A stretch of DNA of 64,000 nt, from contig CAWDOD010000003.1 of assembly GCA_963803805.1 (NCBI GenBank), positions 256,001 through 320,000 on the forward strand. Direction: 5' to 3'. Shown here piece by piece: positions 2,826 through 18,068 of the stretch (positions within the stretch are counted from its first letter, which is position 1; every line of letters begins with the position of its first letter). The notes below the pieces were generated by a model. That model ran no database searches and was not told where the DNA came from. It was given only the letters and a program-made list of their open reading frames with translations. The translations under genes were made by a program, and so were the position numbers. Source of the stretch: an uncultured cyanobacterium. Lineage in GTDB: Bacteria; Cyanobacteriota; Cyanobacteriia; Cyanobacteriales; CAWCAG01.

Positions 2826-2870
2826 AGAAATTATTACACCCCAATTGTGAAAATTTTCAAATCAATTCTT

Positions 2871-2898
2871 AGTATAGCGGGGGGGGGGAAATCGGCAA
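2871..2898 (-). promoter_or_regulatory. candidate sigma70-type promoter with poly-C(10) spacer
   Basis: The minus strand reads TTGCCG-atttCCCCCCCCCCgc (16 nt)-TATACT, about 45 bp upstream of the 2825 ATG. Confidence 0.5.
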
Positions 2899-3006
2899 GG
2901 GGTAATGGGTAATGGGTAATAAGTTAAGGGTAGGGCTTGCTGGAATTGTGGGATTTGAGTGAGCAATAATAAGTGATTTAATAATTAATTACTGAAAATT
3001 TAAGCG

Positions 3007-3162
3007 ATGGTGATTGGAACTATTTTAGGAACGGCTGGTGGGGCTTTAGTTGAGTCTTGTACGGAGGATATTTTCAAGAAGTTAGTTACAGAAAATGTTA
3101 ATAGTTATTTGAATGGAAATGACTTAACTAAAGCTTTGCAAACAGCTAATAATCCCTATTAG
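3007..3162 (+). pseudogene. 51-codon 5' gene fragment running into CRISPR repeat 1
   Basis: MVIGTILGTAGGALVESCTEDIFKKLVTENVNSYLNGNDLTKALQTANNPY*; the last codons and the stop are supplied by the repeat. Confidence 0.45.
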
Positions 3163-3184
3163 GGATTGAAACATGAAAATCAAT

Positions 3185-4326
3185 AGACATCTCCGAAAAA
3201 GAATCAAACTATGATAAAAGAAGATAAAATAGAATTTTTAACCAGAAATAATGAGTAAAATACTCGAATATATCCAGCAACATCCCAGAGAATCTCAGCG
3301 TTTAGTAGGTTTAAAATATGAACAGTTAGAAAAACTGCTCTCCAAGGCTATTGAACTAGAGGCTCAAAAACGAAAACTAGCGGAAGCTCAAAAAGTCAGA
3401 ATTATTGGCTCTGGAGGTGGTAGAAAAGCGAAACTATCTCCACCAGAACAAGTAATCCTAACCTTAACATATTTACGACACTTAACGACATTTCAGCTAC
3501 TAGGGATTCAGTTTGGTATTAGTGAAACAACTGCCAATAATATTTTTAACTATTGGTGTCCCCTAATAGGAGAATTATTACCAGCAAGTATCTATGAGCA
3601 GGTAAAAAAAACGAGTGTGACTATGAAATAGTCCAAGAGATGTTAGCAGAGTTCGAGTTAATTGTAGATAGCTATGAGCAGCCCATCGAAAGACCTGGAG
3701 AGTATGAAGAGCAGAAAAAGTATTACTCAGGTAAAAAAGCTAATCACACAAGAAAAACTCAAGTAATTGTTTTACCAAAAGGTCAATCTGGTCGTCGATG
3801 TTGAAGCGGGTTTACCGGGTCCAAAAAGTGATATCAAAATATTTAGGGAAACGAAAACAAAATTTAGTGAGCAGCAAAGATTTAGGGGAGATAAAGCTTA
3901 TCAAGGAGACAAATCAACGACAACGCCTCTGAAAAAGCCGAGAAAAAAACAACTAAATGCTCAAGAAAAACAAATAAATAAAGAGCTAGCTAAGGAGCGA
4001 ATATTCGTAGAACATTTAATTAGATTAATTAAGATATTTAGAGTAGCTAGTGAAAGATTCAGATTAAATTCCCATAAATATGAGCAGGTAGTTACGACAA
4101 TTTGTGGGTTAGTGAGATTAAGAATTGGTACTTCTGTGTTTTAGTGAAGATATATCTGCCCTTGCCCTTGGCAAATAACTATCTAATTAGAGCTATCTTT
4201 TTGTTAGTTATGGGTAGTAGCTTTCTCAAATACTTATTAAACCGTAGAATAGAGCTATCTTTGGGTCAAGGCAACTGCCATCTCAAAGACTGTACTGTAT
4301 AACTTTGGCTATTTCCGGAGAGGTCT
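3185..4326 (+). mobile_element. IS5-family (ISL2/IS702-like) insertion sequence, 1142 bp
   Basis: Terminal inverted repeats AGACATCTCCGAAAAAG and (rc) AGACCTCTCCGGAAATAG; 3-bp duplication AAT at 3182-3184 and 4327-4329; encodes an HTH + DDE transposase. Confidence 0.9.
3251..4144 (+). pseudogene. IS5-family transposase with A8 slippery site plus a second, probably inactivating, frameshift
   Basis: HTH_Tnp_4-like ORF 3251-3631. A -1 shift at A8 (3604-3611) gives LIVDSYEQPIERP..YYSGKK..HTRKTQVIVLPKGQ, which stops shortly after 3787. The DDE tail (GPKSDI, GDKAYQG, ERIFVEH) is in another frame. Confidence 0.8.
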
Positions 4327-4456
4327 AATCTAAAGAAAAAGCAAATACAAATGTTGCAACAGCTAATAATCCCTATTAGGGATTGAAACAACAGGAAAGT
4401 AAGCGCCAACATTCTTAAGCAAAGGTTGCAGCTTAAAGTACATTGACAGATAGCAA

Positions 4457-5476
4457 TCAAAAAATAAATATCTTATCCAAAGTCTCTTTCTGCAAACCAA
4501 CCACCGTAGGTTGAGGTAAACCGGGTAACAGTTGTAAATCAAACAACTCAGTACAACCTGAATCAAACCGAAGAAAGCCAACAGTTTCACCAGAGTGAAT
4601 ATTCACCACCACCACAGCGCATTGCAGCTCTTTTTCCCTCTCTTGCAGGGGCAAACCACCAAAGATTTTTTTCTCCCTAATTTGTGACAAACCAATAAAG
4701 CCATAACATCCGTAGAAAGCCAACCCCCTGGTAAATCCCGGCAACTCTGCTACAGTAGTACTTTGCCCCGTATAAAGATCCACCCTGACTAAATGCCCCC
4801 GCCCAGAATCTAGCAACCACAAACCACCATCATAAAACCGGGGAGAATGGGGCATGGCGAAACCCCGTGCTACAATTTCTCCACTAGGTATATCAATCAA
4901 GCAACCTCCTCCTACCTTGCCTTCCCGCCAGCCTCTAGGGGTATCCGTATCTCCCAAAGCTGTCACAAACTTAGGCTTTCCTCCCAAAAGTGCTAAACCA
5001 TTGAGATGACAGCGATCTTCTGCTTGCAAACTACTGATGAATAGTGGTTTCCACTGAGGTACAAAATTAAACTCTGGACTCAAAGTACATAAACAAGAAA
5101 ATCGAGTATTTACTACCCACAACTCCTCCCCAACCCAAGCTATCTCATGGACACGAATATCTCCTGTCACATAACAATGGCGGGGGACAAAACAGGCATC
5201 GTATTCTCGATTTGGTTCAACTTTGTTAGCAATTCCTGGTACATTGGCTAAAAACCAAACTTGCTTGCGAGTTCCTATAGCTAGGCGGTGAGGTTGCAAA
5301 GCTAACCCCATAACCTTTTTAAAGCTACGTAGCAAAGTGACTAGCTGACCATTTTCTGACCTCACTACCATTAGCTTCCCGGCTTGGTAAGTAGAAATAA
5401 ACAGGGAAAGGTTCAGGTTGGCTAAAAGTTCAGGAAAACCACCAGAGTGAACATAGCTAATCTTATTATTAGTCAT
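4457..5476 (-). CDS. TIGR03032 / DUF4915 family protein
   Basis: STYQAGKL, TGDIRVHE, VNTRFSCL, EDRCHLNGLA, MPHSPR and PGFTRGL motifs; likely start ATG 5476. Confidence 0.85.
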   Translation of the reverse strand: MTNNKISYVHSGGFPELLANLNLSLFISTYQAGKLMVVRSENGQLVTLLRSFKKVMGLALQPHRLAIGTRKQVWFLANVPGIANKVEPNREYDACFVPRHCYVTGDIRVHEIAWVGEELWVVNTRFSCLCTLSPEFNFVPQWKPLFISSLQAEDRCHLNGLALLGGKPKFVTALGDTDTPRGWREGKVGGGCLIDIPSGEIVARGFAMPHSPRFYDGGLWLLDSGRGHLVRVDLYTGQSTTVAELPGFTRGLAFYGCYGFIGLSQIREKKIFGGLPLQEREKELQCAVVVVNIHSGETVGFLRFDSGCTELFDLQLLPGLPQPTVVGLQKETLDKIFIF

Positions 5477-5626
5477 TGCTTGGTAATCATTAATAATAAT
5501 TAATAAAACTGCCCCAAGAGGTAGGGGCAAAATTATTTTCTTCGTATATGCTTATAAATACGGATATATTATCTCGAAAAGCAAAAACTACTACTTTATT
5601 TTGATTAATTAAGGAACTAATTAGCC

Positions 5627-13415: not shown

Positions 13416-15077
13416 ATGAGCAACTATCCAGAACTTTCTCACCATGGTTATCAAATTGAAAGAGTCTTAGGGAAAAACTCCTTTGGGGGTAGAGTAACCT
13501 ATAAAGCTCAAAAAGGTGAACAACCTGTTGTGATTAAGCATTTTCAATTTGCTCAATCTGATTCTAGCTGGGCAGAATATAAAGCCTATGAGTCAGAAAT
13601 TGCCATGTTGCAACAACTTGATCATTCTAGTATTCCTCGTTACCTAGATTCTTTTGAAACCCCCACTGGTTTTTGCTTAGTTCAAGAATACAAACAAGCA
13701 ATTTCCCTAGCTTCTCCTCTACAATTTACGCCTCAACAAGTTAGGGAAATTGCCTTGGCGGTGTTGGATGTTTTGGTTTATTTACAACAGCAACATCCCC
13801 CGATTATTCATCGCGATATTAAACCAGAAAATATTCTGATTGAAAGGGGGCAAAAAATCAAGGTTTACTTAGTAGATTTTGGTTTTGCCCGTCCAGGGGG
13901 AGAAGATATGGCTGTTAGTAGTGTGGTTAAAGGCACTTTGGGCTTTATGCCCCCGGAACAGATGTTTAATCGCCAATTAACCAAAGCTTCGGATCTTTAC
14001 AGCTTAGGTGCAACCCTGATTTGTTTACTAACAGGTACAAAATCTTCGGGAATTGGTAACTTAATCGACGAAACTAACCGTATTAATTTTCGCTCCTCAG
14101 TACCAAGGTTACATCGTCCTTTTTACAAATGGCTAGAAAAAATGGTTGCCCCTAGCCCCAGGGATCGTTATCCTACTGCTCAAGCGGCTTTAAGCGCCCT
14201 AGAAGCCATTGAGGCAGTGAAGGAACGTAAGGTTACTAGTAGATGTCTGAGTAAGAGACATTCTTCTGGCAAAATGTCTGCCGAAACTGTTGTTTTTGGT
14301 TTGCTATGCTTTCTAGTTGCTTTTATGAGCGCCTTACAAGAAAATGTTAAACAAACAGTTATTCAACCAGTAGAAGTTCAACCATCGAGTACAGAACCCA
14401 TTAACGATCTTGACCGTCTACTAACTACAGGGGAATGTCGTAATTGTGAACTGGCTAAAGCTAATTTAGAAGGATTTGATTTAGCAGGAGTTGACCTTGA
14501 AGGTGCAAACTTAGAAAAAGCAAACCTCAAAGGTGCGATTTTACTCAATGCTAATTTAAAAAATGCTCACCTTAGAAAAGCTGACCTGAGCAATGCTATC
14601 TTAGAAGAAAGTTATCTAGAAAAGGCTAATTTGAAAGATGCTAACCTCGAAGATGCTAACTTACTGAAAGCATCCTTAGAAGAAGCAAATCTCAAAGGAG
14701 CTATTTTAAATAGAGCGCAACTCAATCAAGCTGATCTAGAAGATGCCAATTTAGAAGATGCCAGTTTAGAACAAGCTCGACTAATTTCTGCTAATTTGCA
14801 AGATACCTATCTCTGGCGGGCGAATTTAGAAAGGGCTGATTTGTTAGAAGCGAATTTAGAAGGAGCTAATCTGCAAAACGCTAACCTCGAAGAAAGTCAC
14901 TTAGAAGAAGCAGATCTCAAAGGTGCAGACCTCAGAAATGCAGATTTACGGGCAGCTAGTCTTACCAATGCCGACTTAGAGGATGCGAATTTAGAAAATG
15001 CTTATTTAGAAGGTACGCAGATCAATGGAGCTAATTTATCTGGGACTACTTTACCTGATGGCAGAAGGTATGAATAA
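13416..15077 (+). CDS. Ser/Thr protein kinase with TM helix and C-terminal pentapeptide repeats
   Basis: VVIK, HRDIKPEN, DFG, GTLGFMPPEQ; hydrophobic segment; long A(D/N)LxxA repeats after CRNC. Confidence 0.92.
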   Translation: MSNYPELSHHGYQIERVLGKNSFGGRVTYKAQKGEQPVVIKHFQFAQSDSSWAEYKAYESEIAMLQQLDHSSIPRYLDSFETPTGFCLVQEYKQAISLASPLQFTPQQVREIALAVLDVLVYLQQQHPPIIHRDIKPENILIERGQKIKVYLVDFGFARPGGEDMAVSSVVKGTLGFMPPEQMFNRQLTKASDLYSLGATLICLLTGTKSSGIGNLIDETNRINFRSSVPRLHRPFYKWLEKMVAPSPRDRYPTAQAALSALEAIEAVKERKVTSRCLSKRHSSGKMSAETVVFGLLCFLVAFMSALQENVKQTVIQPVEVQPSSTEPINDLDRLLTTGECRNCELAKANLEGFDLAGVDLEGANLEKANLKGAILLNANLKNAHLRKADLSNAILEESYLEKANLKDANLEDANLLKASLEEANLKGAILNRAQLNQADLEDANLEDASLEQARLISANLQDTYLWRANLERADLLEANLEGANLQNANLEESHLEEADLKGADLRNADLRAASLTNADLEDANLENAYLEGTQINGANLSGTTLPDGRRYE

Positions 15078-16694: not shown

Positions 16695-17792
16695 TTAAAT
16701 CTCCGGTTTATAAGCGACCCAATACTTACTAACAAAATGATTTGCTATAACAACATTTTCAAAACCAGCTTTTTCAAAACGTTCTGTCAAATTATCTGTA
16801 ATGTAATGCCTGTAATATGGTTCGTGGAAAATAGCCGGAAAATTTTCCATCATCGGGGTCAATTCTGGAAAATCAAGAGCCTGTATAGAATCACAAATCA
16901 CAAATACCCCTCCAGGTTTGATAACTCGAAATGCTTCTTCTATAACTCTCTGGCGTACTTCTGGCGGTAACTCATGGAAGGTGAATACACAACTAAGACC
17001 ATGGAAATAGTTATCTAAATAAGGCAATTCTTCTGCCTTGGCTTGCAATAATTGAGGCAATTCCCCAGGATTCTCTGAAAGTAATTGATTGGCTTTGCGT
17101 AAATAAGCAGGGGATAAGTCAATGCCAAATAAGGAGGCTTTTGGTAAAGTAGCACGAATTTGTTTCAATGTTCGACCCGTACCACAAGCTAGATCCAAAA
17201 CGCGGATTTGCTGAGGGCGAATTTCCTCAAACTTTTCTAGTCCTAGTTGTAAAGGCTCAAGAATACGTCGCCGCATAGCATCTGCTGCACCATTAAAAAG
17301 CAATTCTACCTGCAAATCGTAAAGATTAGCTGATTGATCACTTAAATAACCATCGGTTTGGTGGTGGAAATTTTGTAAATAGTAGGGAGGATAGTCCTCT
17401 TTGTCGATTTCTGGGGCAAAGGTTTGATATTGCTTCTGTTGCAATCTTTGCCAAATTGCAGGCATATCTAACCAAACCAGAGGATAATAGCGGAAGAAAT
17501 CTGACCAAGGGTTATCAAAGAGCAAGCTATGGGGATAAATACCTTTTTGGGCATCTTGCCAATCAACTTCTAGCAACTCACCCATTCTTTGCTGAATTTG
17601 GAGCAAAATTTTTGGTGAGAGAGGAATTGTGTTTTTATCCTGGTGGGGAACAAAGAAACTAGTTAAGCGGTTATTGACGGCTTTGTGAATTAAGCTAAAA
17701 TAACTTTTGCTTTGTTGAAAGGCTTGGTAACTAGCCTTGGTGAAGGTATCAGATAAGCTTGAAGCTTGGTTAAAATTAGGATTAGATTGCAT
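16695..17792 (-). CDS. class I SAM-dependent methyltransferase (cyanobacterial conserved)
   Basis: YYLQNFHHQTDGYLS, VLDLACGTG, GIDLS, FHELP; start uncertain. Confidence 0.88.
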   Translation of the reverse strand: MQSNPNFNQASSLSDTFTKASYQAFQQSKSYFSLIHKAVNNRLTSFFVPHQDKNTIPLSPKILLQIQQRMGELLEVDWQDAQKGIYPHSLLFDNPWSDFFRYYPLVWLDMPAIWQRLQQKQYQTFAPEIDKEDYPPYYLQNFHHQTDGYLSDQSANLYDLQVELLFNGAADAMRRRILEPLQLGLEKFEEIRPQQIRVLDLACGTGRTLKQIRATLPKASLFGIDLSPAYLRKANQLLSENPGELPQLLQAKAEELPYLDNYFHGLSCVFTFHELPPEVRQRVIEEAFRVIKPGGVFVICDSIQALDFPELTPMMENFPAIFHEPYYRHYITDNLTERFEKAGFENVVIANHFVSKYWVAYKPEI

Positions 17793-18068
17793 GGATGCGA
17801 AAATAAATAATTTATCAGTTGTGTGGTTGTTCTTTGACAATAAATTTAAGTTTTGTAAAGTTTATTATAACGAATCCCAAAATCAGTTCGCAAAAAAACG
17901 CTGATATTTCAGTTAAGCCTGTAACAAAGGTTAAGCTTACGGTGTTGAGGGATACGCCAAAGGTTTAGAAAGAGACTTTTAACTTTTGAGGTATTGTCAT
18001 CCAGCAGTAGGTTGAAAGTTGAGAACGAATATCCTATACTCTCCTAATCCCACAGGAGGAAGCCATTT

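Follow-up and report, generated by a model that had tools for sequence, protein, structure and literature searches.

Near the start of the window, by which we mean the whole 64,000-nucleotide stretch of an uncultured cyanobacterium analysed here, two copies of a CRISPR-like repeat lie about 1.2 kb apart, with an insertion sequence (IS) between them. The locus raises the questions of what these repeats are, how they came to stand away from any cas gene, and whether the IS removed a guide whose loss was favoured or simply landed in DNA that was already decaying. Below, the genome that holds the window is termed G000 and its congener G001. We consider it probable that the locus is a stranded, leaderless piece from the trailer end of a type I-D-family array, which was hit by the IS and no longer works, and that the insertion is a case of neutral decay.

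The first-pass annotation had reported two 37-bp repeats. The spacing of 1.2 kb was borne out, and the second repeat (R2, 4353-4389, + strand) is complete with 37 nt. The first one (R1, 3135-3172, + strand) is not an identical 37-mer; it carries the repeat from position 2 onward plus one extra A. The two share 33 exact bases, which form a direct repeat at 3141-3173 and 4358-4390, 1217 nt from start to start, and an ungapped comparison over 37 nt revealed 4 mismatches at the 5' end of R1. With up to 3 mismatches allowed, the window has a single match to the full 37-mer (4353-4389); the 19-nt 3' core of the repeat is present twice. None of 100 shuffles of the window gave one match to the 37-mer, and none of 100 gave two matches to the core. 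Against the Rfam family RF01318 (CRISPR-DR5), R2 scores 50.1 bits on the + strand compared to a threshold of 40, and R1 reaches 39.9 bits on the same strand, 0.1 under the threshold. Both R1 and R2 contain an 8-bp stem followed by a short 3' tail, with folding energies of -8.4 kcal/mol (z -2.6) and -9.0 kcal/mol (z -2.4), respectively. The predicted RNAs of both repeats would form a Cas6-type hairpin near the 3' end, which is intact in R1 in spite of the altered 5' end.

Removal of the IS and one copy of the flanking AAT brings the repeats to a spacing of 72 nt (1217-1142-3), as compared to 70-75 nt in the sister arrays of the same genome. The left 12 nt of spacer 1 (3173-3184), which end with AAT at 3182-3184, are then joined to the right 23 nt (4330-4352), restoring a spacer of 35 nt just as the annotation had predicted; the second copy of AAT lies at 4327-4329, between the IS and the right part. 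Spacer 2, also proposed from the outset, follows R2 at 4390-4424 and is again 35 nt long, and the motif GTTGCA reappears exactly 35 nt past R2. The degenerate terminal repeat that had been assumed at this point did not hold up. The region 4425-4461 is repeat-like only in its first 8 nt (4425-4432, GTTGCAgC), matches the repeat at 14 of 37 positions overall, and continues as unrelated sequence. It does not form the repeat hairpin; with a folding energy of -1.9 kcal/mol, it is no more stable than 184 of 200 shuffled versions. We therefore refer to it as a third-repeat stub.

A fuzzy search of the whole genome G000 located three further arrays of the same repeat family, with 6 repeats (C2:78380), 4 repeats (C10:518883) and one repeat plus a partial one (C10:89531). 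All three sister arrays are preceded by a conserved leader of about 250-300 nt, with blocks of 79-94% identity. The last one is a minimal array, in which the leader is followed by a single repeat, a single spacer and a partial repeat. Some 40 nt past this array comes a different IS of about 1015 bp, the whole region being G000:C10:89264-90680. BLAST located this IS at 13 other places in the genome, 11 of them at 99.8-100% identity and two diverged at 90% and 83%. In G001 the family forms long arrays, including one of 17 repeats that runs to the contig end and has 3 mismatches to R2. Immediately in front of this array are a homologous leader and the genes cas2, cas1d (split into two ORFs), cas4 and cas6, and the rest of a type I-D cassette follows cas6. 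Based on this linkage of array and cassette, the repeat family is assigned to type I-D, and the earlier placement of the repeat in a cyanobacterial, Cas6-processed family is supported by both the Rfam match and the congener.

Whether the 37-mer belongs to bona fide arrays has two answers. The exact R2 37-mer was found neither in genome_contigs nor in metagenome_contigs (0 matches in each), and its closest relative within G000 differs by 2 bases. The family, on the other hand, does occur in arrays adjacent to cas genes in G001, and the 25-nt 3' part of the repeat is identical to the cas-adjacent repeats there. As the exact variant was found only at this locus in all that was searched, the parent array cannot be named. 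The same facts bear on the idea that the locus is a dispersed non-CRISPR repeat which merely flanks an IS. That idea could draw on the presence of only two good copies here and on the exact 37-mer being in no other array searched. It is hardly credible against the score above threshold for CRISPR-DR5, the leader-bearing arrays of the family in G000 and the 17-repeat cas-adjacent array in G001, the exact family period of 72 nt upon removal of the IS, and the GTTGCA motif placed exactly 35 nt beyond R2. The leader-bearing arrays, the cas-adjacent array and the Rfam match refute it, and the locus is a CRISPR array remnant, as was suspected.

The fragment is remote from cas genes, in agreement with the orphan status that had been given to it. 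None of the 46 window ORFs of at least 100 aa matched the PADLOC cas models, and the Cas1, Cas6 and RAMP matches of G000 are all on contigs other than that of the window. The search for the cognate cas genes, which had been put forward as a check, led besides the three sister arrays to a type I-D effector cassette at G000:C10:322598-331427. It comprises cas3', cas10d, csc2, csc1 and cas6, and neither an array, nor a leader, nor cas4-cas1-cas2 adjoins it. The cas6 of this cassette (C10:322598-323416) is the only match in G000 to either of the two Cas6 models searched. Downstream of cas6, G000 is without the 2.1 kb that in G001 carry the adaptation genes cas4-cas1-cas2 together with leader and array. 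No match in G000 reaches the curated cut-off for Cas1d, the best one scoring 275.8 bits against 385, and the Cas1 matches of G000, on C1 and C2, adjoin arrays whose repeats are of other classes.

Many arrays of such other repeat classes are present on C1 and at C2:425122-438550. The class with repeats ending in GTTGAAAC is found on C1 and also, on C2, at the flanks of a RAMP/cas1 locus. Two more classes adjoin two cas1 genes of C1, and one of these genes is within an open frame of 664 aa, which suggests a fusion protein. PADLOC also gave matches in the window outside the cas models. A 553-aa protein (13416-15074, + strand) matches the kinase-type defence models mad6 (E 1e-46) and PD-T4-6 (E 7e-43), and a 381-aa protein near it (16698-17840, - strand) matches mad2 (E 2e-16); these may be simply Ser/Thr kinase and partner domains. 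To the left of the array remnant, on the minus strand at 1237-2825, is a tandem pair of paralogous genes, encoding 252 and 240 aa, with 86-90% DNA identity to G001. The 240-aa protein has no Pfam match, and neither of the two matches PADLOC.

The IS occupies 3185-4326 on the + strand and is 1142 bp long. Its boundaries were obtained from four full copies in the genome (contigs C3, C11, C9 and C7), which are 99.8-100% identical with 0-2 differences, and in a BLAST search of the genome the identity among the copies spans precisely bases 1 to 1142. The ends are imperfect terminal inverted repeats of 11 nt (3185-3195 and 4316-4326) that match at 10 of 11 positions. AAT flanks the window copy on both sides, so the clean insertion inside a spacer that had been read from the sequence is confirmed by exact boundaries and an AAT/AAT target-site duplication. 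Perfect 3-nt duplications are seen at two of the four copies, and the 3-nt target is AT-rich at all four sites. Only the window copy, one of the four, lies within a CRISPR array, and spacer 1 is AT-rich like the other target sites.

The transposase gene has the same + orientation as the array and consists of three frame pieces (3251-3631, 3640-3804 and 3767-4144), with neither an uninterrupted nor a single-frameshift frame. HTH_Tnp_4 was found with an E value of 7.7e-19, and DDE_Tnp_4 on two of the pieces with 1.7e-7 and 7.5e-21. The NCBIfam IS5 model gave 3.6e-10 on a partial piece, which is below its cut-off. Relatives with 66-69% identity are present in 32 plasmid records, at least 30 of which are cyanobacterial by name, and among the best 12 of the 32, two are annotated as IS5/IS1182. 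With its HTH and DDE_Tnp_4 domains, inverted repeats, 3-nt duplication and multiple copies, the element is a member of the IS5 family.

The first break in the transposase frame is at a run of eight A (3605-3612), where a -1 slip would join the first two pieces. Such -1 slips are usual in the IS5 family, and this break may be a programmed slip. The second is a 1-nt frameshift near 3790 within the DDE domain, at which related public contigs are without one base. Both breaks are common to all four copies in the genome. The four fresh copies may have arisen despite the broken transposase by mobilisation in trans, by slippage, or by a spread before the mutation followed by gene conversion. Contigs from four public DNA runs were also compared over 2826-4600. 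They covered the IS and the repeats, with 2946-3125 and 4446-4600 uncovered, and the X2-X4 contigs additionally covered the bin 2886-2945, which contains simple heptamer repeats. The joints across the IS in these contigs carry other spacers, and therefore come from other arrays or organisms. The intergenic stretch 2886-2932 has a run of G followed by GGGTAAT heptamer repeats, and the genome has comparable heptamer runs at many sites.

The first-pass annotation had suggested that one guide was knocked out by transposition, which could be selected if it targeted self or a useful element. In this scenario, spacer 1 would have aimed the I-D complex at the own DNA or at a useful mobile element, and its knock-out would have relieved autoimmunity. 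In its favour, spacer 1 is lost as a guide through the IS, and the I-D effector cassette that persists in the genome looks complete and includes cas6, so that a self-targeting guide could have done harm. The target searches tell against it. Outside the locus, the longest match of the restored spacer 1 in the host genome (5.3 Mb in 11 contigs, 97% complete) is 15 contiguous bases and that of spacer 2 is 13, with E values of at least 0.09, and neither spacer has a protospacer in its own genome. The restored 35-nt spacer 1 was compared with the host genome only. Its right 23 nt have no exact match in viral_contigs. The exact pattern of spacer 2 was found in none of viral_contigs, metagenome_contigs and genome_contigs. 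In blastn searches, spacer 2 gave no match in plasmids and partial, chance-level matches to 6 phage records (Staphylococcus, Rhizobium and Vectrevirus phages; E of at least 0.4). Among 401 genomes of the order, searched with up to 3 mismatches, spacer 2 was seen solely in the window's own genome. No usable target emerged from any of these collections. Spacers without a known target may nonetheless have been harmful to the host at some time.

Two further points weigh against a selected insertion. The fragment has no leader, and the guide may never have been expressed. In addition, the element has AT-rich 3-nt targets at all four of its sites and is in a CRISPR array at one of them. We regard selection for the knock-out as very unlikely. 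Given the missing self-match, the missing leader, the single array insertion among four copies and the AT-rich targets, a neutral insertion into a fragment that was stranded already is the simpler reading.

The flanks of the remnant indicate how it may have reached this place. In front of R1, on the + strand, is the 5' fragment of a NACHT-family NTPase gene (2965-3138), with its ATG at 3007 and about 44 codons. It aligns with G001:C5:477678-477849 at 78% DNA identity, and the homology stops at GCTTTG. In G001 the ORF is intact, exceeds 543 aa and shares this N-terminus; Pfam returned a weak match of the fragment to NNH2 (E 0.0078). The host genome has no other copy of the truncated gene and just a paralogue with 45% identity. 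The 5' edge of R1 is the junction with this fragment, at a TTG microhomology (3136-3138) after which the repeat resumes from its second base with the extra A. The predicted 51-aa ORF at 3007-3162 is spurious, being the NACHT fragment running into R1. On the right side, the 8 nt of the third repeat are followed by about 26 nt of unmatched sequence and then by the stop codon of a DUF4915 gene (4457-5530, - strand), which the end of the stub region overlaps. We considered whether the right flank (4425-4458) continues the NACHT gene and rejected it, as its local alignment scored 16, a value that 274 of 2000 shuffles also attained.

Comparison with G001 places the fragment between breaks of synteny. 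Positions 1-2902 of the window are in synteny with G001:C9:23103-26004, positions 2965-3135 match the NACHT segment on C5 of that genome, and from position 4459 synteny resumes with the region of G001 that starts at C9:751385. On contig C11 of G000, near 491100, the reciprocal counterparts of the left breakpoint are found together. With the leader of the sister arrays and of G001 as query, no leader with a promoter was found ahead of the first repeat, and contig C3 gave no match at E of 10 or less among the best 25 of 38 matches. In place of a leader, the 174 nt upstream of R1 are the start of the NACHT gene. Being without a leader and lying between synteny breakpoints, the fragment appears to be a stranded trailer piece of an array.

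Based on these features, we propose the following course of events. A genome rearrangement would have severed the fragment from its leader and from the remaining array. On the left, an illegitimate join at the 3-nt microhomology would have placed the first 44 codons of the NACHT gene directly against the first repeat that was left, and on the right the array would stop 8 nt into a repeat, beside the stop codon of an unrelated gene. What is left would be a repeat, a spacer, a second repeat, a second spacer and the 8-nt stub. A young, still mobile IS5-family element would then have entered the AT-rich spacer 1 by ordinary transposition and duplicated AAT. Of the two events, the rearrangement presumably came first and the insertion of the IS second.

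Such a fragment is most likely not a source of guides, because the leader promoter is missing, spacer 1 is split by 1.1 kb, and spacer 2 has a Cas6 site on its 5' side only. Read-through from a NACHT promoter or from the transposase gene, which has the same direction, could transcribe R2 and spacer 2. It might then be supposed that the remnant still operates as a mini-array, in which transcription starts from the captured NACHT promoter or the transposase gene, Cas6 cuts at R1 and R2, and spacer 2 yields a crRNA with a trimmed 3' end. The kept hairpins of R1 and R2, the common + strand of array, NACHT start and transposase, and the presence of cas6 and an effector cassette in the genome are consistent with this, as is the processing of remote orphan arrays reported for Anabaena 7120 (10.1101/2020.04.14.041012). 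Against it are the missing leader and the missing Cas6 site 3' of spacer 2. Moreover, promoter-like sites in 2826-4600 are no commoner than chance (5 seen, 5.4 expected), and the homology to G001 upstream of the NACHT ATG extends over just 42 nt, so the promoter may not have come along. A working mini-array is therefore unlikely, if less so than the selected knock-out. More doubtful than the mini-array itself is the proposal that the locus is a snapshot of array fragmentation, in which microhomology-mediated illegitimate recombination carried whole repeat-spacer units, severed near the 5' edges of their repeats, to a place behind the NACHT start, where they are still expressed from a captured promoter as a leaderless mini-array.

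The preferred reading, a stranded and probably silent trailer piece, can be set beside systems already described. In filamentous cyanobacteria, orphan, fragmented and transposon-split arrays are documented. Reimann et al. 2020 (10.1101/2020.04.14.041012) argued that the orphan arrays of Anabaena 7120 are functional and assigned one group of them to the I-D Cas6. They reported that a MITE of 134 nt interrupts the Anabaena array CR_6/CR_7 and that fragmentation is typical, and they presented the way in which arrays fragment in filamentous cyanobacteria as an open question. The window fragment resembles the group 2 I-D arrays of Anabaena sp. PCC 7120 as described there, which are small, remote from cas genes and scattered on the chromosome, and which a single I-D cas6 can serve. 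Unlike the orphan arrays of that strain in the same account, it is leaderless and fused to a gene fragment, and the element in its spacer is a full IS of 1142 bp compared to the MITE of 134 nt. For the orphan arrays of Anabaena, processing has been demonstrated. The likeness of the window fragment to group 2 is one by description.

Mobile elements that enter arrays are likewise on record. Cyanobacterial Tn7-like transposons were reported to target CRISPR repeats (PMC11837452, Mob DNA 2025), and the window IS is similar to them in being a mobile element within a cyanobacterial CRISPR array, orphan arrays included. According to that report, the Tn7-like elements recognise the repeat and prefer arrays, whereas the window IS lies in a spacer at an AT-rich 3-nt target and three of its four copies are outside arrays. 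No sign of array targeting by the IS5-family element was found among the four copies in the genome.

In practical terms, the locus should be annotated as a CRISPR array remnant together with an IS5-family element, and the ORF of 51 aa at 3007-3162 as a gene fragment. It is another instance of known events, and its mildly instructive feature is fragmentation by rearrangement with loss of the leader. It thereby adds to the known cases of fragmented arrays in filamentous cyanobacteria, here by rearrangement and not by the copying of a leader-plus-array module. The insertion is most likely neutral decay, which fits what is seen in G000 as a whole, where a type I-D system is without cas4-cas1-cas2 and keeps small arrays of 1 to 6 repeats. 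Taken together, the locus, the loss of cas4-cas1-cas2 and the four small arrays represent a type I-D system that is decaying in a rearranged, IS-rich genome.
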